DNA of 64,000 bases from Escherichia phage QL01: sequence record NC_028847.1, one strand, 5' to 3'. This document shows positions 7,855-59,838 of the stretch, in pieces. Within the stretch, counting starts at the first letter, position 1, and each line of letters opens with the position of its first letter. A program made the translations under genes and the position numbers. The notes beneath the pieces were generated by a model that was given only the letters and a program-made list of their open reading frames with translations, was not told the DNA's origin and searched no databases.

Positions 7855-7883
7855 ATAATAACATGTCATGAGGAGAAGTAAAC
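7855..7883 (-). promoter_or_regulatory. early-type promoter cassette with 9-bp inverted repeat
   Basis: GTTTAC, 17 nt, TATTAT; arms CTCCTCATG/CATGAGGAG flank the -10. Confidence 0.55.
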
Positions 7884-21757: not shown

Positions 21758-22651
21758 TTAAAGGACCACGTCCTCATAACTTGGCATTTCGTGCTCAGAA
21801 TGGATGTGGGCACCGAAATAAATGAATTCAGCTAGACCAGGATGGAATACTAAACCGGGATTCTCATGATAAATGATATGAGGTCTTGATTTCAGAATCT
21901 GATAATATTCAACCTTACTCGGTTTGAATTTAATAATCTCTACATCAGGACGATAGTCTTCACGCTTAAATGAATCATTCGGATCGGTGATATAAAGGCG
22001 AGAACCTTCAGCCGCAGCTTGGTCTACAACTCTTTCGAATTGATAACATTTATCAGAGATACGGAATGGATGGAAAATACCATCAATTTTAATAGGCGCT
22101 AGGCCTTCAGAGTAACGCTCAATTACTGCCGGATTAATTACCTTTTGGTCTACAAAAATCTTATCAGAGGACGCACCTCGTGACACCAGGACGTCTTTCT
22201 GGCATTGATTCAGGACTGTGGTATAAATCGAACGTTCAACTGAGGACACGTCGGTATCAATAAACTCGTCGATATAATAACGAGGAACTTCAGGGTCCAT
22301 TGTAATGTTAAAGTTGAATTGTACAGTCTGAGTGCCATCATAACCTGTGATATCGGTTACCAATCCTGAGCAGTCATAGTATTCGATTAACGAATCAACA
22401 ACGAACTCGTTTTCAGACCAAAAATGTTTACGAGTTTCATAAGCATTTTCTTTATACCAAAGCGGTACAAAATTCAGTTCAGGAAATAATTCAATGCATT
22501 CTTTGATATCGCTCGAATTTCTAGGATAAGCCAGATAATCACCTGGGCAAGCACGGTTTAAATGGAGTTGAAAATTACCGTCCTTAAGGACGGCATATTC
22601 ACCTGTTTCGTAACTACGCATACTGAAAATAGGAACGATAAACAAACTCAT
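21758..22651 (-). CDS. hypothetical protein at beta-gt locus; candidate DNA glycosyltransferase
   Basis: 297 aa between uvsX and 42; does not resemble T4 beta-gt as remembered; function inferred from locus only. Confidence 0.35.
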   Translation of the reverse strand: MSLFIVPIFSMRSYETGEYAVLKDGNFQLHLNRACPGDYLAYPRNSSDIKECIELFPELNFVPLWYKENAYETRKHFWSENEFVVDSLIEYYDCSGLVTDITGYDGTQTVQFNFNITMDPEVPRYYIDEFIDTDVSSVERSIYTTVLNQCQKDVLVSRGASSDKIFVDQKVINPAVIERYSEGLAPIKIDGIFHPFRISDKCYQFERVVDQAAAEGSRLYITDPNDSFKREDYRPDVEIIKFKPSKVEYYQILKSRPHIIYHENPGLVFHPGLAEFIYFGAHIHSEHEMPSYEDVVL

Positions 22652-23346
22652 TTCAGGAATCCTCGAACGTAGTCAAAATCACGTTCAAATACGTGTGCAC
22701 TAACCATAGTATGGGAATACGTACCCAGACCAACACCACACTGTTCAGCAATAAAGGCCATCAGTTTACCCTGCAGATAGAAATCCAGCTGCATAACAAT
22801 AGCACAGTTCTGTGAACGCATATGGGTATGTGCATAAAGACGTCCATCACGAATATAATATGTCACTGAATCAGTACATGGATATTCTAAGGATTCGTCA
22901 GAATCAAGGAGGGCTTGGTCTTGTTCTTGGAGAATTTGGAACACAACTCGTCTTGAGTTAGGCTTCTCTTTAAGCTCTTTAAGTAAGGCTGGGAGTTGGG
23001 CCACAATTCTAGGTCCATAGAAAGTGTTGAAGTTTGCAGGCAATACGTCACTTTTCGGCTTATCAATGAACTTAGCAACATTAGGGTATTCCTTAAATGC
23101 TTCGGCGGCGTCAGTACCACCAGAAATCATAAACTTCCAGAAAGATTCGGCATAATCATAGTTGATACGATTAATACGAGGGTCGGTGAATTTATAGGTG
23201 CTTGCATCCAGTACTTCTACCGAAGCAGAACCAATTTCATAACAACGGCCGATACGAGAATCAACTGCAAACTGTGGAGCTTCCAGGATTTCTTCGTTCA
23301 TTTGCTTAAACGCGTTTTCAAAACTAACAGCGGTAATGTGTTTCAT
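22648..23346 (-). CDS. 42: dCMP hydroxymethylase
   Basis: 232 aa; thymidylate-synthase-like motifs SRRVVFQ and YPCTDSVTYYIRDGRLYAHTHMRSQN. Confidence 0.8.
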   Translation of the reverse strand: MKHITAVSFENAFKQMNEEILEAPQFAVDSRIGRCYEIGSASVEVLDASTYKFTDPRINRINYDYAESFWKFMISGGTDAAEAFKEYPNVAKFIDKPKSDVLPANFNTFYGPRIVAQLPALLKELKEKPNSRRVVFQILQEQDQALLDSDESLEYPCTDSVTYYIRDGRLYAHTHMRSQNCAIVMQLDFYLQGKLMAFIAEQCGVGLGTYSHTMVSAHVFERDFDYVRGFLK

Positions 23347-23879
23347 TTATTCACCTTATTTTCAATATATTCATTCAGACGTTTTAATTCTACCATATCG
23401 ACGTTAAGCAAGTTATTATGGCCGTCGTGATTTAAGATTTTAAACACGTTTTCAAAACATGTTTCATATTGCCGGATAGTTAGGTTGAACTCATCTTTGG
23501 TTAATTTAATAAGGTCATCTTCAAAGTCTTTATCCAGTGGATTACGGGTTAAAATAACCTCAATAATATTGAATTCAGATTTAAACCCTTTCCAATCTTC
23601 CAGTTCTACATAAGGGTCCATTTCACCACGAAGGAATCCAGAGTAAACAATATTACTAGGATACCCACGGTCTAAGATGTAGACAAAATTAGGGTCTAAA
23701 AACTTATACAACGTCTCGACTAAAGCCTTGTCATTATCAGTCCCTAATGAAATGCATTTGCCATTAATCTTTTTAGGGAAATCAATAAGACGATATTTCT
23801 TATCAGATAAAAGTGATTCAATTAAAGTAGACTTCCCGGAATTATCCGGGCCGTCGATAACAATGATTTTTGGTTTCAC
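23343..23879 (-). CDS. P-loop nucleoside/nucleotide kinase-like protein
   Basis: 178 aa; Walker A IIVIDGPDNSGKST at N-terminus, dNK/dTMP-kinase-like. Confidence 0.55.
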   Translation of the reverse strand: MKPKIIVIDGPDNSGKSTLIESLLSDKKYRLIDFPKKINGKCISLGTDNDKALVETLYKFLDPNFVYILDRGYPSNIVYSGFLRGEMDPYVELEDWKGFKSEFNIIEVILTRNPLDKDFEDDLIKLTKDEFNLTIRQYETCFENVFKILNHDGHNNLLNVDMVELKRLNEYIENKVNK

Positions 23880-24250
23880 GGATGATATGCCTTATAGGTT
23901 TCAAGAGTTCCTTCACGAACCATTTCTTTAAAGTGGTCAGGACGGATTGCTCGGTCATCGATGATAAAAGTATAACTCGGCTTATGTGTAAGCAGATTGT
24001 GATATTTCAATCCAATCTTTTCAAGGTTCTTAACTAATGCAGGAACTACTTCAACCAAGATTCGACCCGGGCCGCATGAAGTCATACCACGGGCAGTGAA
24101 CAAGGTAATCTCGTACCCTTCATCATAAAGCTTATTAATCATAGACACCATTTCGGTGTCCGGTTTAAAGTTTTCGTAATCACGGTCATCTTGCCAGTGA
24201 GTAATGGTATTATCGATATCAAAACACAGATGCATTAAATTTTCTTCCAT
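23876..24250 (-). CDS. HAD-superfamily phosphatase (small)
   Basis: 124 aa; HAD motif I FDIDNT, motif II LFTARG, motif IV IIDDRA. Confidence 0.55.
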   Translation of the reverse strand: MEENLMHLCFDIDNTITHWQDDRDYENFKPDTEMVSMINKLYDEGYEITLFTARGMTSCGPGRILVEVVPALVKNLEKIGLKYHNLLTHKPSYTFIIDDRAIRPDHFKEMVREGTLETYKAYHP

Positions 24251-25908
24251 TGTTTGTGGAGTTCGGTAGAACCTGTAGGTTTATATTTTACACCAGTTTC
24301 CTGGTCAAGCAAAACCCACTTATCAGGACAACGAGTGATAATTTGAGCCGTGATAGGGTCGCGAACTTCATCAACGAATTCACCTGTGATAAGCTTACGC
24401 TTACGAGGATGCCGCTTCAGCAGCACACTCAGTTGATATAGCCCATTGTAATAAGCGCCCAGAGCTTTCAGAGGGTTATTTTTAAAGTAACCTGCCAATG
24501 CCATCCAGATAACAGCAATCCAGAGCTTGTGCTTAAATGTACACATCGGAATATCATCTAAAGGCATAACCTTTTCAATATCAACGAATACACGAGTTCC
24601 GTTACGAGTTAAGCCACCCCATAGAGGGTCAGAGTTAAATTTGTCATAACCATCGATAGAATAAAGCACCTTAGCTTCATCATAAATCGCAGGGCCTTTA
24701 GAACTATTACCAAAATAACCACGTGGGTCGATGATTTTAATATTACCTTCGTCCGACAACATAATATTACTGTAGTGCGGGTCGCCATGAATAAGTTGGT
24801 ACGGTTCTTTATGTTCAGACAGAATTTCTAAGGCGTGACGAAGAAGTTTTTCTGGGTCGCCTACCTTGAAGTCGTTAACATGGGTAATACCCTGTGGAGC
24901 AAAGCCTTCAATCAATCCGGCAATAGAAGCATTACGAATAAGGACCTTGTCCAATACTTCTTTCTTAACATCAGAATACCATTGCTCATCGGACGGATTA
25001 TCGATAGTTCCACCGAACGAACGTAATGCACTAATAACCTTATAAACCATTAGGACTTTAGTTTCTTTAGACATAAACCGGTAGGCATCTGCCATGGTTC
25101 GACCAAAGATACGTTCCATTTTAATGAATTCACCTGGAGCAAAGTCTACAATGCTAGGAACGAATTCAGAATCAATAGAATTGTACCAATTGATTTCTTT
25201 AGATTGGATTTCTTTACCTAATTCGTTTGTAGGTACTTTAATAGCTAGATTCTCAGTGAACTCTAATTTATTAAATTCACGGTTAATTTCAGAATCTTCA
25301 TGGGCCTTAGCCAGTTTCAGTTTGTCACCAACATCAACTACAAAGTCTAACTTACGTTCAGTCAAATGGACCATTGAATCCAGGTTGTCAGCAAGGTCTT
25401 CACCATAATTAGAACGGTCGAAACCTGTCCAATTAGCCACCTGATACAAGCCAACTACGCCACCACCGGTACCAATTTCACGCAAGTACGGTTCTTCAAA
25501 TGTAAAACGGCAGTCAGTCCCATAGGTATAACAGTAGTCGTTATCCCACTCAACTTTATGACCTTCAGGAATAATATCACACCAGTTAAACAAGACATTG
25601 TGCCCAATGATATCTTCGGCAATGCAATCGATAGCATGAGCCGAACCATTGGCAACATCAACGTTACGAATAGTGAATTTAGGCTTATCACTATTAATCA
25701 TGTTAATGGATTTAATATAGCCTTTAACGAGGTCGTTAAATTTGCTGTGAATAACCAGAATAATTTCATCTGATTGATTACTATACAAATCATACAAATG
25801 TTTTAATACAGTATGTTGTTTGTAGTTAACCAGTACCTTCGGGATTTCGTTGGTAATTGGATACAACCGTGAGCCAAGACCCGCGCCTAAAATAACAACC
25901 TTTTTCAT
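24235..25908 (-). CDS. bifunctional sugar-1-phosphate nucleotidyltransferase / APH-like (anomeric) kinase
   Basis: Start set at Met11 (GAGGAA SD); N-terminal VVILGAGLGSRLYPIT...PKVLV, C-terminal LIHGDPHYSNIM and IIDPRGYFG. Confidence 0.65.
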   Translation of the reverse strand: MKKVVILGAGLGSRLYPITNEIPKVLVNYKQHTVLKHLYDLYSNQSDEIILVIHSKFNDLVKGYIKSINMINSDKPKFTIRNVDVANGSAHAIDCIAEDIIGHNVLFNWCDIIPEGHKVEWDNDYCYTYGTDCRFTFEEPYLREIGTGGGVVGLYQVANWTGFDRSNYGEDLADNLDSMVHLTERKLDFVVDVGDKLKLAKAHEDSEINREFNKLEFTENLAIKVPTNELGKEIQSKEINWYNSIDSEFVPSIVDFAPGEFIKMERIFGRTMADAYRFMSKETKVLMVYKVISALRSFGGTIDNPSDEQWYSDVKKEVLDKVLIRNASIAGLIEGFAPQGITHVNDFKVGDPEKLLRHALEILSEHKEPYQLIHGDPHYSNIMLSDEGNIKIIDPRGYFGNSSKGPAIYDEAKVLYSIDGYDKFNSDPLWGGLTRNGTRVFVDIEKVMPLDDIPMCTFKHKLWIAVIWMALAGYFKNNPLKALGAYYNGLYQLSVLLKRHPRKRKLITGEFVDEVRDPITAQIITRCPDKWVLLDQETGVKYKPTGSTELHKQWKKI

Positions 25909-25968
25909 TATCTGTTCCTCAAGTGAATGTAGGTACATTATACACTATTTTTAATAAATTGGTATTGC

Positions 25969-26469
25969 TTAAATCTTATCTTTACCGATTTCAATACACT
26001 GTTCTATTGCCGCCGGTGCTTTGGTCTTGAGCTTATCGATTTGTTTCTTATAATCACGAGCTTTACCGAAGCTCTCGGTTTCGAGCATTTCGTAATAACG
26101 AGCCTCGTGGATGGAAATCTGTAGATTGATATGGTTTACGCACATCGCATACAGTTTCTGCTTTTTGTACAAATCATCTTGACGCTTCATTTCTGCCTGG
26201 TGTTTGGCTAGTACCGCTTCACGCTTAGACTCTTGTTCACGTTGGAATTCGATTTCCCTTTGAGCATATTTTGCACAGTTATTACCACATTGATTATTGG
26301 CTCGGGTGTACACAAGTCCAGAACCTGCACGGAATTTCATTTCGCCATCGAATTGTTTCTGTTCAGCTGCGATACGAGCTTTACCAACTTCATCAGCCGA
26401 AACTGCATCACCATATTGGACCGCGCAACCTGATAGGAGCATACTCATTGCGATAATTAACTTTTTCAT
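25969..26469 (-). CDS. putative lipoprotein with coiled-coil region
   Basis: 166 aa; signal peptide with lipobox LLSGC. Confidence 0.5.
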   Translation of the reverse strand: MKKLIIAMSMLLSGCAVQYGDAVSADEVGKARIAAEQKQFDGEMKFRAGSGLVYTRANNQCGNNCAKYAQREIEFQREQESKREAVLAKHQAEMKRQDDLYKKQKLYAMCVNHINLQISIHEARYYEMLETESFGKARDYKKQIDKLKTKAPAAIEQCIEIGKDKI

Positions 26470-55733: not shown

Positions 55734-55985
55734 TTATTCTTGGAATGGGGTAAGTTTTCCAGCAGCTGAACAAATTTCTACCAGTACAGGGTAAAACTCT
55801 TTCACTTGTTCAAGGCGTTGGGCTGCATACTGTACTTCACCTTCTTCGAGACAAGCCATTTGGTCGTCAAGCAAGTATTTGTGGTAGCCAGTACAGGCTT
55901 CACCGATGATACGCTGGAAATCTTGTAAACTTTCAATTTTCATCAGTATTTTTCCTCGGGTTGGAAAACGGAACGACACGCCCAC
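55734..55985 (-). CDS. hypothetical protein
   Basis: 83 aa. Confidence 0.4.
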   Translation of the reverse strand: MGVSFRFPTRGKILMKIESLQDFQRIIGEACTGYHKYLLDDQMACLEEGEVQYAAQRLEQVKEFYPVLVEICSAAGKLTPFQE

Positions 55986-56221
55986 ATGCTTGCTTCTTTC
56001 AGACGGTCAATTGCATTACGAATCTGGGTGATGCGTTCATGAGCCTGGTCTAGTTCTTGTTCAGAAACCTCTTCGGTATCTAAGTTCATATAATGAGTAA
56101 CATGTTCTTCTTCCAGAGCTTTAAACATTAACCCAAGACGAACTTCAGCATCTTTGATAGCGTTTACTTTACCGATTTTATCGTCGGTATGCGGCTTATA
56201 ACCCTTGATATCTTCAATCAT
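55943..56221 (-). CDS. hypothetical helical protein (vs.4/Acb2-position candidate)
   Basis: 92 aa; MIEDIKGYKPHTDDKIGKVNAIKDAEVRLG...KEASMWACRSVFQPEEKY; T4 vs.x region downstream of regB; tentative. Confidence 0.35.
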   Translation of the reverse strand: MIEDIKGYKPHTDDKIGKVNAIKDAEVRLGLMFKALEEEHVTHYMNLDTEEVSEQELDQAHERITQIRNAIDRLKEASMWACRSVFQPEEKY

Positions 56222-56773: not shown

Positions 56774-57249
56774 ATAAATTTATTAATCATTACCTGGTAA
56801 GCTTCATAGAACTTATCCATCGCTGGAAGGCGCATTGGCTCTTCGATAATAATCAATAATCGAGTAACAGATAGTCCACGATACTTATGGAAATTGTCTT
56901 CATCAAGGAAACTGCGCACAGTATCATAGACAACAAAACCAGGACCTTCGACTTGGAGATGTGGGTGTGCCTTAGAAACCTGTTTTATTACATTACAAAT
57001 TTCTCGCGAGCGATGCGAAGAACTCGACATAACAATCACATCATTACCCTTGGAAACCCAATCAGCGGCGAACTGAGCAAGGGCACTTGTTTTACCTGTT
57101 TGGCGTCCGCCATCAAGTCGAAGAGTACCAAACTCTTGCATTCTTGAAGTAGGTTCATACCATGTGTATTGGTCTGAGTCTAAACGTTCAATGGCGCGTT
57201 CAGCGAAGGCGTGCATTAAGGTTAGATAAATGGGAGTTAAAAATTTCAT
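56722..57249 (-). CDS. P-loop NTPase-like protein
   Basis: 175 aa; Walker A GGRQTGKTSA, hydrophobic Walker B-like IIIEEP. Confidence 0.45.
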   Translation of the reverse strand: MKFLTPIYLTLMHAFAERAIERLDSDQYTWYEPTSRMQEFGTLRLDGGRQTGKTSALAQFAADWVSKGNDVIVMSSSSHRSREICNVIKQVSKAHPHLQVEGPGFVVYDTVRSFLDEDNFHKYRGLSVTRLLIIIEEPMRLPAMDKFYEAYQVMINKFMCQGDKPLPLFFVIGMQ

Positions 57250-57409
57250 AGTAGTCTCTTAGTGGTGGGGCCATTCCTTGGCACATAATTCGTCCATGTA
57301 TCCGTATGTAAACCCTTTACCGCACTTGGGCTCGACCTTATTACAGGTAGGGAAAGGTCCATCACTCAGAGGACGCGACGTTCATGAGGAGAGGGCCGGC
57401 TTGCCTTTA

Positions 57410-57709
57410 TTAGAAAGAACCAGAACCTCTAATTGTGTTCTGGCGACCTTTATTTTCTAATTCGGAGTGGTCGATTTCATATGCTTGTGCTACGCCAAAG
57501 GCCTTTTTAACTTTAGCTAAAGAACCTTTAGATGTAACAATATTAAAAGTATTACCTTTGGTAAAATCAACAAAATCGACTTGTACGCCCTGTTTACCGA
57601 GGCTTGCTACAATAGCATCAACATATTCTTGGTCTAAATTGCCTTGAACTCCAATTTGAAATGCTTTAGGAGCTTTGGCTTCTGTGATAAATTCTTGATA
57701 AGTTTTCAT
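57410..57709 (-). CDS. internal protein (capsid-targeting sequence)
   Basis: 99 aa; N-terminal CTS MKTYQEFITEA typical of T4 internal proteins. Confidence 0.6.
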   Translation of the reverse strand: MKTYQEFITEAKAPKAFQIGVQGNLDQEYVDAIVASLGKQGVQVDFVDFTKGNTFNIVTSKGSLAKVKKAFGVAQAYEIDHSELENKGRQNTIRGSGSF

Positions 57710-57752
57710 TGTTATTCCTTAAGTTGATAGAAGTATTCTATCACGGATTTAA

Positions 57753-58169
57753 TTAAGCGTAAATAGCCTTGCCATAATGTTTGTACCAGGTAGGACGCTG
57801 TGCAATTTTTTCATCCAAACGGGTCTGAGATATAGCAATAGAAGCTTCGTGTGGAGTATAGTCACCACGGAATTCCTGAGGAATGTCACTAATGTCCTGG
57901 ACAGTAGTATCCTTGATATTAAAACCACGTTTTAAACATTCGGCTATAAGCTCAATTTGTCGCTTACGTAAAAATTCAAGCTTATCGTAAAAGAATGTAA
58001 CATGGCCTGTGCCAAGGATAAAAGTAGGACTGATTTTGAAATCACGGACACGTTTACCATTAGCAACATGCTTACGAACTGCACCGAAAACACGTGGTAA
58101 TTCACGATATTCAGCCATTAAGTGTTGGTCAGCCAATTCAGATACTAAGGTAAGGTTGATACGAGTCAT
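57753..58169 (-). CDS. denV: endonuclease V (pyrimidine dimer DNA glycosylase)
   Basis: 138 aa; essentially identical to T4 DenV ([29 protein letters not shown]...). Confidence 0.95.
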
Positions 58170-58196
58170 TTTTAATCTCCTGTAGTTGATAGGTCT

Positions 58197-58225
58197 ATAG
58201 TATCATGACTACAGGAGATGTAAAC
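58197..58225 (-). promoter_or_regulatory. early-type promoter cassette with inverted repeat (denV)
   Basis: GTTTAC, 17 nt, TACTAT; arms CTCCTGTAG/CTACAGGAG. Confidence 0.55.
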
Positions 58226-58249
58226 AACTTTTATCAAGTATAGGCTTTA

Positions 58250-58846
58250 TTAATTACCACGGGCTGCATTAGCAACGGCGTAAGCGTACTGAATATTAGC
58301 GTCTTTAAACGTACCTTTAGAGGTATCTATCTCTGCCTTAAAGCCGCCTTTAACCATAACATCAGCAAATTCTTTACGGAAAGTCATTGCATCAAGACCT
58401 TTCCATGCGGATTTATGCTTGGCAAATTCAAGACCGGCGAAGTTAACTGCTTTAGCCAATTTATTATCAATAGTCCATTTACCTGCTTTAGGTACAAACA
58501 CCGGGCCTTTCTGTTTAGAGAACAGTTTTAAATTCCAGCGACGAAGGTCACCGTCAGCTTTAACAAAAGCTGCGTCCAAGTTACTAGCAACAACATCTTG
58601 GATATGGGCAAATTTAAGTCCATCAGCTTCAATATTTAGGTCGTTACGCCAGCGAAGTCCTTCCCAGGCGAAAGCTTTAAAATCAGAAGCTTTTGTAGCC
58701 AAGTACCGTTCAATAGGAGCTGTTTTAGCGTCAAAACCGTTTCCTGGGTTGTCAACGCCGTTTCCTTTGTAAGTCCACTCATCTTTATTAATGCCTTGGA
58801 CCTTTCCTACAGAAGCTTCGGCGATAAATTCTTTATACGTTTTCAT
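58250..58846 (-). CDS. internal protein (capsid-targeting sequence)
   Basis: 198 aa; N-terminal MKTYKEFIAEA. Confidence 0.6.
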   Translation of the reverse strand: MKTYKEFIAEASVGKVQGINKDEWTYKGNGVDNPGNGFDAKTAPIERYLATKASDFKAFAWEGLRWRNDLNIEADGLKFAHIQDVVASNLDAAFVKADGDLRRWNLKLFSKQKGPVFVPKAGKWTIDNKLAKAVNFAGLEFAKHKSAWKGLDAMTFRKEFADVMVKGGFKAEIDTSKGTFKDANIQYAYAVANAARGN

Positions 58847-58899
58847 ACGGGTTCCTTAAAGGAAAATATTTTAATTGGTCTGTTCAAGTAACTGTAGAT

Positions 58900-58928
58900 A
58901 TACTATCACAATTCTAGGAGATGTAAAC
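58900..58928 (-). promoter_or_regulatory. early-type promoter cassette
   Basis: GTTTAC, 17 nt, TAGTAT. Confidence 0.5.
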
Positions 58929-59327
58929 TTATTTATAGGTCTTCATCCAATTCTTGAACAAAGCCGCGACGTCTTTCTCTTTAACGTTCAGTTTAATGTC
59001 CAACATTTTACCACCCGCTGCTCTGGTTTGGCGAATCTTAGCAGTACCGGTTTCGCCATTCCACTCAACATAATACTGTCCAGTGTTCATTGCAATACCA
59101 TCACCGTAGTCTTCATTTTTAGAAGTGGTGAATGCTAGCTTCATAGTCTTAGATACACGAGCCTGCATGCCTGTCTGAAGGGCATTACGAACGCGAATAA
59201 CCTGAGGAGTGGCCTGGGTCAAGTTCTCATTCAGTTCTTCAGTGAACTCTTCAGATTCAAACATCGCCAAAAGTTCTTTAGATGCAGGAATTACATTCTC
59301 TGCGATAAATTCATTATAAGTTTTCAT
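58929..59327 (-). CDS. internal protein (capsid-targeting sequence)
   Basis: 132 aa; N-terminal [11 protein letters not shown]. Confidence 0.6.
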
Positions 59328-59808
59328 ATGCTTTCCAAGTACCTGTTTTAAATGTTGAAATCACGCGCTTAGCACGATTAGGAGTTTGTTTATACCAACG
59401 GGATTGAGCCAGGTTAACTGCCGCATCGTTCCAACGTTTCTGTTGGAGCATACGTAAAGAGTTAGTGAACCCTGCTACGCCTGCTTCACCCATTTGGAAG
59501 ACCATGTTAATTAAAGCACAACGACGAACTTCGTCCAGTACATCATAAACAGGTTTCAATTTAGGATTACGCAGAATAGCTCTACGAGCATTTTCAACCG
59601 ATTGGTTAAAGAGTTGTTCAGCTTCAGCCATAGTAATACGACCATTACAAACTCGACCCATAAGCTTATCAAGTTCAGCACGAGCAACATCTTTAGAAGG
59701 GTTCTTAGTAATCAATTGGCCAATACCAATAGTCCAATAACCTTCAGTGTCTTTATAAAGATTTAAATCAAGACCTTCGTCTTGACGTAACATATCAAAA
59801 ATATCCAT
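59314..59808 (-). CDS. e: lysozyme (endolysin)
   Basis: 164 aa; T4 lysozyme match incl. catalytic E11/D20/T26 context ([21 protein letters not shown]). Confidence 0.95.
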
Positions 59809-59812
59809 AATA

Positions 59813-59838
59813 CCTCCTGAGTATAGGAGGTATTTATA
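59813..59838 (-). promoter_or_regulatory. late promoter (TATAAATA) plus SD-sequestering hairpin for gene e
   Basis: TATAAATA on minus strand; CCUCCU...AGGAGG inverted repeat pairs the SD; late start falls inside the hairpin. Confidence 0.6.

Follow-up and report, generated by a model that had tools for sequence, protein, structure and literature searches.

The T4-type e–denV internal-protein locus of Escherichia phage QL01, with an unannotated family of proteins bearing the capsid-targeting sequence

Results

We analysed 64,000 nucleotides (nt) of Escherichia phage QL01 (NC_028847.1; this whole stretch is called the window below, and all coordinates are positions in it) and found, in the interval between the lysozyme gene e and vs.8 that also contains denV, three genes whose products begin with the capsid-targeting sequence (CTS) of the T4 internal proteins (Ips). 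They are named here by product length as IP99, IP198 and IP132. We consider it highly probable that this is the e–denV Ip locus of a Dhakavirus, that its three CTS proteins are packaged in the head, injected and active in counter-defence, and that its genes are swapped as cassettes. Whereas IP198 and IP99 belong to Ip families already on record, IP132 represents, as judged from its sequence, a family of CTS proteins that is unannotated in databases and in the searchable literature, with a position coupled to e and a probable second processing site.

A preliminary description of this DNA had reported three open reading frames (ORFs) starting with MKTY(Q/K/N)EFI(A/T)E, had equated that start with the T4 CTS, had placed the genes around denV and had called their bodies unrelated in size, and on each of these points our analysis agrees with it. 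A six-frame scan of the 64 kb for M[KR]T[YF]x[ED]F[ILV] returned the IP99, IP198 and IP132 ORFs only, and the degenerate DNA pattern ATGAARACNTAYMANGARTTYAT, allowing up to two mismatches, matched the three CTS starts and nothing else window-wide; with 0.00 matches in 100 dinucleotide-preserving shuffles, none would be expected by chance. The CTS ends in all three proteins with an (L/I)-x-E site (ITE10 in IP99, IAE10 in IP198 and again in IP132). This is the rule for sites of the prohead protease (gp21) in the T4 literature, and it fits T4 IPI, with its ITE19 and a mature form of 76 residues. Beyond the tag the proteins share nothing: the BLASTP match ends at about residue 15, the N-terminal tag alone aligns in hhalign profile-profile comparison, and remote homology among the three bodies was rejected because both methods recover only the CTS. 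Searches of Pfam, NCBIfam and PDB sequences with the three bodies gave nothing above threshold. The isoelectric points (pI) of the predicted mature forms are 8.8–9.9, as compared to 9.6 for T4 IpII and IpIII.

Escherichia phage vB_EcoM_FB matches the region at 99.1% identity, MX01 at 96.5% and JS10/JS98 at 92–93%; all of these are T4-like phages of the genus Dhakavirus. Its gene order is regB – Acb2-like vs.4 – vs.x – vs.7 – vs.8 – IP99 – denV – IP198 – IP132 – e – nudE, as compared to vs.8 – denV – ipII – ipIII – e – nudE in T4. All three genes lie where Ip genes are expected, that is, in the e–denV region or at the ipI locus by 57B, and on this gene order we identify the locus as the classical second internal-protein locus (e–denV) of T-even phages in a JS98-like Dhakavirus. 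The denV product, 97% identical to T4 DenV, is encoded by a conserved non-Ip gene inside the Ip locus. The head module lies outside the 64-kb window; MX01, which is 96.5% identical across the locus, encodes a head maturation protease, scaffold proteins and an Inh protease inhibitor. The sequences, homologies, locus structure and breakpoints given here are direct results of the analysis, and the coordinates are collected in Table 1.

Table 1. Features of the window discussed in the text
Feature	Position	Strand	Remarks
IP99	57410-57709	minus	99 aa; N-terminus MKTYQEFITE/AKAPK (slash, predicted cut)
IP198	58250-58846	minus	198 aa; N-terminus MKTYKEFIAE/ASVGK
IP132	58929-59327	minus	132 aa; sequence after predicted CTS cut, NVIPAS
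IP132 linker, codons 11-34	59226-59297	minus	pI 4.05; ends at second L-x-E site (LNE34)
45-nt ribosome-binding site + CTS repeat (D1)	57678-57722 (IP99), 58815-58859 (IP198), 59296-59340 (IP132)	minus	67-80% identity
denV	57753-58169	minus	pyrimidine-dimer DNA glycosylase (endonuclease V); Pfam PF03013 Pyr_excise, E 1.3e-14
denV stem-loop (PeSL-like)	58170-58224 (hairpin region 58165-58230)	minus	inverted repeat I1, 17-nt arms
Early-promoter element GTTTACATCTCCT...TAGTAT	58899-58928	minus	upstream of IP198; direct repeat D3, 80% identity
Early-promoter repeat partner	58196-58225	minus	upstream of denV
TATAAATA match	58930-58937	minus	last IP132 codons and stop (...T-Y-K-stop); 83 nt upstream of IP198 start
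e	59314-59808	minus	lysozyme gene; Pfam Phage_lysozyme, E 5e-13
T4 late-promoter consensus TATAAATA	59831-59838	minus	overlaps 5' arm of the hairpin upstream of e (element 59809-59838)
Thymidylate-synthase homolog	22648-23346	minus	arabinosylation-type cluster
Kinase-like ORF	23343-23879	minus	arabinosylation-type cluster
Nucleotidyltransferase fused to APH-type kinase	24235-25938	minus	arabinosylation-type cluster

IP198 is by homology an ortholog of T4 IpIII (Ip3), a protein already known. It shares 87% identity with T4 IpIII over 198 aa (E 4e-129), 99% with MX01 gp114 and 94% with JS10 ipIII, and it matches phrog_5341, 'internal virion protein' (E 7e-115). The preliminary description, which counted it among the divergent bodies, is contradicted by this close match over the full length, an outcome that it had itself named as refuting.

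IP99 can likewise be placed in a described family. It matches phrog_2667, 'internal head protein', over the full profile (E 7e-43), is 50% identical to T2 Ip7 over its full length (E 1e-29) and has 282 matching phage records, with orthologs annotated in RefSeq as 'internal head protein' in JS10, MX01, IME281 and AnYang. An AF2 model (mean pLDDT 76) shows a ferredoxin-like fold. IP99 does not occupy the ipI-locus interval between 57B and the tRNA genes; location, however, is no strict mark of the Ip7 family because Ips move as cassettes, and from its homology we regard IP99 as an Ip7-family member at a different locus. In WG01 a further Ip7-like match (70463-70732) has 47.8% identity to the IP99 body and lies ∼13 kb from the e–denV locus of that phage. 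Identity of IP99/Ip7 with the McrBC inhibitor Bas37_0260 was rejected on size alone (77 aa vs 99–102 aa); the Bas37_0260 gene adjoins an 85-aa 'ipI' gene.

IP132 matches only phrog_15461, 'unknown function' (E 8e-92). It has 48 matching phage records, and among the 40 listed every one is a 'hypothetical protein'; we found no earlier naming of the 132-aa protein in the searchable literature. A word-indexed search of 5.8 billion proteins gave 17 clusters, and an exhaustive hidden Markov model search of 1.84 billion cluster representatives recovered only 5 true members of the family, which is restricted to Straboviridae of Enterobacterales. Its carriers are Dhakavirus, Marfa-like Klebsiella phages, Serratia phage 4S, Erwinia phage Cronus (Roskildevirus) and two metagenomic lineages. 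The alignment has the CTS and the core invariant, and every full-length homolog read starts with the CTS or a close variant (MKTY[NK]EF[IL]xE, MKSYNQFLDE or MKSFDQYIME). The layout is a CTS (residues 1–10), an acidic linker ending in L-N-E (residues 11–34) and a conserved basic core (residues 35–132), the last of which would comprise 98 residues with a pI of 9.9 after the predicted cut at Glu34. Since the second site, L/I-N-E followed by N, is kept in most homologs (it is absent in Cronus), the 24-residue acidic linker is probably removed by the prohead protease in a two-step maturation. The AF2 model of IP132 (pLDDT 53.5, with residues 1–34 below 50) consists of a helix, five strands and a helix. 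One metagenomic member (P0040; contig SRR14654591_561, 4001–4585 of the extracted stretch) has 194 aa, with a CTS-like start (MKSFDQYIMES) and an extra segment of ∼90 residues at the N-terminal end before the conserved core; its gene, too, overlaps the stop codon of lysozyme, with denV downstream.

In all six lineages whose context was read, the IP132-family gene lies directly 3' of the lysozyme gene; five of them show an overlap between its start and the stop codon of e, and Cronus has a 9-nt gap. JS10 is the exception within Dhakavirus, with the IP132 cassette between ipIII and denV. In the window the overlap is 14 nt (gcATATGAAAACTTATAAt, 59314-59327), implying co-transcription and translational coupling of e and IP132. 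Shifted to the other frame, the final codons of e (...A-Y-E-N-L-stop, gcATATGAAAACTTATAAt) spell M-K-T-Y-N, the start of the IP132 CTS, and the unusual Asn5 of this tag falls on the e stop codon. As Asn5 is retained in JS10, where there is no overlap with e, the overlap may be the older arrangement. Within the same genomes, identity to the window proteins is 45–48% for the IP132 family, 59–77% for e and 62–82% for denV; the IP132 family thus diverges faster than its flanking genes.

The signals around these genes are of both late and early type. Upstream of e, the element 59809-59838 joins a match to the T4 late-promoter consensus with a hairpin (inverted repeat I19, 10 bp; RNA fold −14.1 kcal/mol, z −3.3) in which the Shine-Dalgarno sequence of e (AGGAGG) is sequestered, and it is likely the late expression signal for e and IP132. 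The control of T4 gene e is reported to be of this design. No promoter-like site of its own was seen for IP132, and because its start lies on the e stop codon, IP132 is most likely translated late and coupled to e, as would suit a prohead component. A second match to the late consensus, at the 3' end of IP132, is by its agreement with the consensus a candidate late promoter for IP198. A T4-type early-promoter-like site (TTTACA-N16/17-TA(G/C/...)AT, with TG) precedes IP198, denV and IP99 each. The window holds ten copies of GTTTACATCTCCT, all on the minus, transcribed strand (at 7871, 12602, 18719, 29262, 37646, 47327, 51810, 55717, 58213 and 58916), as compared to 1.7 expected, and these look like a dispersed promoter family of the PeSL type. 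The stem-loop upstream of denV (RNA fold −22.8 kcal/mol, z −5.6) has an early-type promoter within it and sequesters the Shine-Dalgarno sequence of denV; the upstream region of T4 denV is almost identical.

Comparison with relatives revealed at least six different cassette types other than denV in the interval between e and vs.8, all with a CTS start (Table 2). In pairwise BLASTN, synteny breaks at the 45-nt repeat of ribosome-binding site and CTS and at the 30-nt promoter repeat: the WG01 and KIT01 breakpoints lie inside copies of the former, and the IME281 and JS10 rearrangement junctions, at 58225 and 58916, lie in the latter. The denV element has all the parts of a PeSL, namely a promoter, the hairpin described above and junctions (58225/58236), while the element upstream of IP198 has a promoter and the junction at 58916 without a significant stem-loop (z 0.0). 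Modular shuffling mediated by PeSL elements has been described in T4-like phages (Arbiol 2010, PMC2839356; Comeau 2014, PMC4122927), with the consensus TTTACW-N17-TAYWAT for the T4/PST pair (PMC4122927), and polymorphism of the Ips has been described earlier (Repoila 1994, as cited in PMC3012670 and PMC12373910). The locus appears to evolve by cassette exchange, with recombination in the CTS codons and in the early-promoter/stem-loop repeats, which fits both the PeSL shuffling model and Ip polymorphism.

Table 2. Order of genes between e and vs.8 in the window and related phages
Genome	Order from e to vs.8
Window / FB	IP132, Ip3, denV, IP99
MX01	IP132, Ip3, Ip2, denV, IP99
AnYang	IP132, Ip3, Ip2, denV, 119-aa, IP99
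KIT01	IP132, Ip2, denV, 119-aa, IP99
WG01	IP132, Ip3, denV, 119-aa, 85-aa
IME281	IP132, denV, IP99
JS10	Ip3, IP132, denV, IP99
T4	Ip3, Ip2, denV

Two of these cassettes, both downstream of denV, encode CTS proteins annotated as 'hypothetical protein': one of 119 aa (MKTYQQFITE..., in which residues 15–17 form a second site, LNE or INE) and one of 85 aa (MKTYQEFITE...). In positions of the extracted stretches they lie at 500–1125 in WG01 and at 820–1179 in both KIT01 and AnYang. The gap between vs.8 and the end of IP99 (57246-57409, ∼160 nt) varies among relatives, WG01 being only 85% identical over 57200-57351. About 1.2 kb from the Ip locus, the minus-strand counterpart of vs.4 (55943-56221), a gene that in T4 encodes the anti-CBASS sponge Acb2, encodes 92 aa with an Acb2/Tad1 hairpin domain (Pfam PF24729, E 1.3e-15).

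Elsewhere in the window a gene cluster of the cytosine-arabinosylation type (21758-26469, minus strand) stands at the place of T4 gene 42 and beta-gt. Dhakaviruses are predicted to have arabinosyl-5-hydroxycytosine in their DNA and not glucosyl-hydroxymethylcytosine (2026 NAR, PMC13326640), and the same source predicts arabinosylated DNA for Marfaviruses. An arabinose gene cluster is present in Dhakavirus and in Serratia phage 4S. That the IP132 family tracks arabinosylated DNA was nonetheless rejected as a rule, since Cronus has a dCMP hydroxymethylase and an alpha-glucosyltransferase.

Discussion

By homology to T4, packaging, cleavage, injection and anti-restriction activity are to be expected of IP99 and IP132. 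Each protein of the locus would be made late, IP132 probably coupled to e on a late transcript and IP198 from its own TATAAATA upstream. Through its 10-residue CTS the protein would enter the prohead scaffolding core, and a gp21-type prohead protease would cut after Glu10 and, in IP132, probably also after Glu34. The mature proteins, basic at a predicted pI of 9–10, would then remain with the packaged DNA, be injected along with it and serve as first-line counter-defence in the cell. Such a route is described for T4, whose packaged DNA retains ∼1000 internal-protein molecules that are injected with it (PMC3012670; PMC12373910).

What the injected proteins would do is suggested by those of known function. 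T4 Ip1, Ip2 and Ip3 each block a distinct Type IV restriction enzyme of the GmrSD type, with no cross-protection (PMC12373910), and McrBC is inhibited by the CTS protein Bas37_0260 (bioRxiv 10.1101/2025.11.20.689424). The target of T4 Ip3 is the GmrSD-type system of ECOR17 (PMC12373910; PMC9391042); Ip3 is needed for infection of that strain, and a CTS-less form is active when provided in the cytoplasm (PMC9391042). By analogy, IP198 most likely has the function of Ip3, inhibiting an ECOR17-like Type IV restriction enzyme of the GmrSD type, an assignment we make with fair confidence. The authors of PMC12373910 propose that the other proteins encoded at the two Ip loci act on additional variants of this immune family. 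Extending this proposal and the precedent of the four known CTS proteins to IP99 and IP132, we assign both, with moderate confidence, as most likely injected inhibitors of other modification-dependent restriction enzymes.

A more specific role for IP132 is possible and is put forward tentatively. The family would be the conserved occupant of the slot after e in Dhakavirus, Roskildevirus, Serratia phage 4S and two metagenomic lineages, would be matured at Glu10 and Glu34 to a basic core of ∼11 kDa, and would inhibit a defence for which no phage inhibitor is known, be it a Type IV subtype or another first-response nuclease. The Marfa-like Klebsiella phages carry the family as well, and the claim of a slot rests on the gene context of the other lineages.

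Several observations weigh against the reading of the locus as a source of packaged, injected counter-defence proteins. A virion proteome of Dhakavirus/JS98 was not found in the searchable literature; presence in the virion, cleavage and injection are predictions for IP99 and IP132. Because the DNA is predicted to be arabinosylated, the host enzymes may differ, and the target of T4 Ip3 may not carry over unchanged. The position of IP132 is fixed across genera, unlike that of the freely swapped Ips, which could suggest a more general role, and its fold matches carry little weight because model confidence is low. Lastly, the window has five TATAAATA sites, each of them on the minus strand, as compared to 6.6 expected; the count was rejected as statistical evidence, and only the positions of the sites are informative.

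In a rival reading, IP99 and IP132 would be packaged but structural or physico-chemical in function, neutralising DNA charge and helping packaging or ejection while inhibiting no defence. The mature forms are basic, lysines of the T4 internal proteins contact DNA phosphates and have been proposed to aid packaging (PMC3012670), the place of IP132 by e does not behave like that of an arms-race cassette, and the predicted folds point to no specific inhibitor function. We consider such a role unlikely, however, given that all function-tested CTS proteins (Ip1, Ip2, Ip3 and Bas37_0260) are specific inhibitors of Type IV restriction (PMC12373910; bioRxiv 10.1101/2025.11.20.689424) and that the T4 ip genes are non-essential (PMC12373910). 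The absence or replacement of IP99 in close relatives, e.g., WG01, likewise argues against a general structural need, and the IP132 family evolves faster than e and denV.

It is also doubtful, in our estimate, that IP99, IP132 or both are injected in counter-defence against something other than a Type IV enzyme, such as an early-acting nuclease, an abortive-infection sensor or a sensor of arabinosylated DNA or its precursors. Far less probable than either of these is that IP132 stays out of the head altogether, its MKTY start being a by-product of the overlap with the 3' end of e and its role a late intracellular one, perhaps with lysozyme. Although the reading of the C-terminal codons of e as M-K-T-Y-N, the recurrence of the overlap in most lineages (with Cronus only 9 nt downstream) and the lack of any database label of IP132 as an internal protein would be compatible with this, the CTS match extends past the overlap to E-F-I-A-E at residues 6–10, and the CTS is kept both in JS10/JS98, where the gene lies between ipIII and denV, and in Cronus, where nothing overlaps. 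Moreover, the whole motif, including the I/L-x-E site, is conserved across homologs of 45% identity, which is difficult to account for unless targeting is under selection.

Injected counter-defence by CTS proteins remains our preferred account of the locus, and it is a published model: that polymorphic CTS proteins are injected as anti-restriction factors is not a new hypothesis (PMC3012670, citing Repoila 1994; PMC12373910; PMC9391042). The preliminary description was thus largely right in its interpretation, was not new, and erred for the middle gene, IP198. It had taken all three products for internal proteins, a label that IP198 and IP99 already bear in close relatives as internal head or virion proteins and that IP132 does not. 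It had also offered the divergent bodies as candidate new effectors, which applies neither to IP198, as an IpIII ortholog, nor to IP99, as a member of the Ip7 family, and leaves IP132 as the only unannotated one. The structure prediction it had suggested as a check yielded models and left function unsettled. The class of protein is already known and the current model is unchanged; the IP132 family is a modest addition to it. The practical gain is small but tangible: 'putative internal protein' would be a fitting new annotation for the 132-aa family, and the gene beside denV can be recognised as Ip7-like.

Such proteins are of interest because host immunity meets injected internal proteins before any other phage molecule. 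Each of the four CTS proteins characterised so far switches off a specific Type IV enzyme, and the uncharacterised ones may thus serve as probes for variants of host defence. Dhakaviruses are components of cocktails for phage therapy and biocontrol, and IP99 and IP132 are candidate determinants of their host range; the probably arabinosylated cytosines of these phages may give them restriction enemies other than those of T4. The locus also offers a clear case from nature of cassettes being exchanged at two kinds of conserved sequence, the CTS codons and a promoter element.

Among known systems, T4 IpIII is the closest to IP198. The two have the CTS in common save for one substitution (Q5K), share a place downstream of e and have homologous upstream promoter regions; IP198 differs by an insertion of 5–6 residues near residue 28 (...GNGVDNPGNG...), by ∼13% substitutions and by a host phage whose cytosines are probably arabinosylated rather than glucosylated. 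T2 Ip7, encoded at the T-even ipI locus, has the same CTS as IP99 and resembles it in size and basic pI, but its gene is found by ip5 in the interval from 57B to the tRNA genes, whereas IP99 lies downstream of denV. IP132 has no sequence or fold similarity to IPI* (T4 Ip1) that we could detect. T4 IPI, a small protein of the CTS type, nevertheless serves as the working model for IP132: its precursor, which is cut after ITE19 to a 76-residue form (PMC3012670), is a loose precedent for a cut of IP132 beyond residue 10, and its mature fold, in which N- and C-terminal helices lie on either side of beta sheets (PMC3012670), may be compared with the low-confidence model of IP132. The Dar proteins of phage P1 and other injected anti-restriction proteins are reported to be likewise packaged in the head, co-injected with the DNA and protective against restriction (PMC12810830, PMC9024508). 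They are unrelated proteins, take another packaging route and act against Type I rather than Type IV restriction. With the PeSL elements the locus shares early-promoter repeats between Ip genes (TTTACA...TA(C/G)TAT), the denV stem-loop and the rearrangement junctions that coincide with them, and it differs in that here the CTS-coding sequence would provide a second recombination site, inside the genes themselves.

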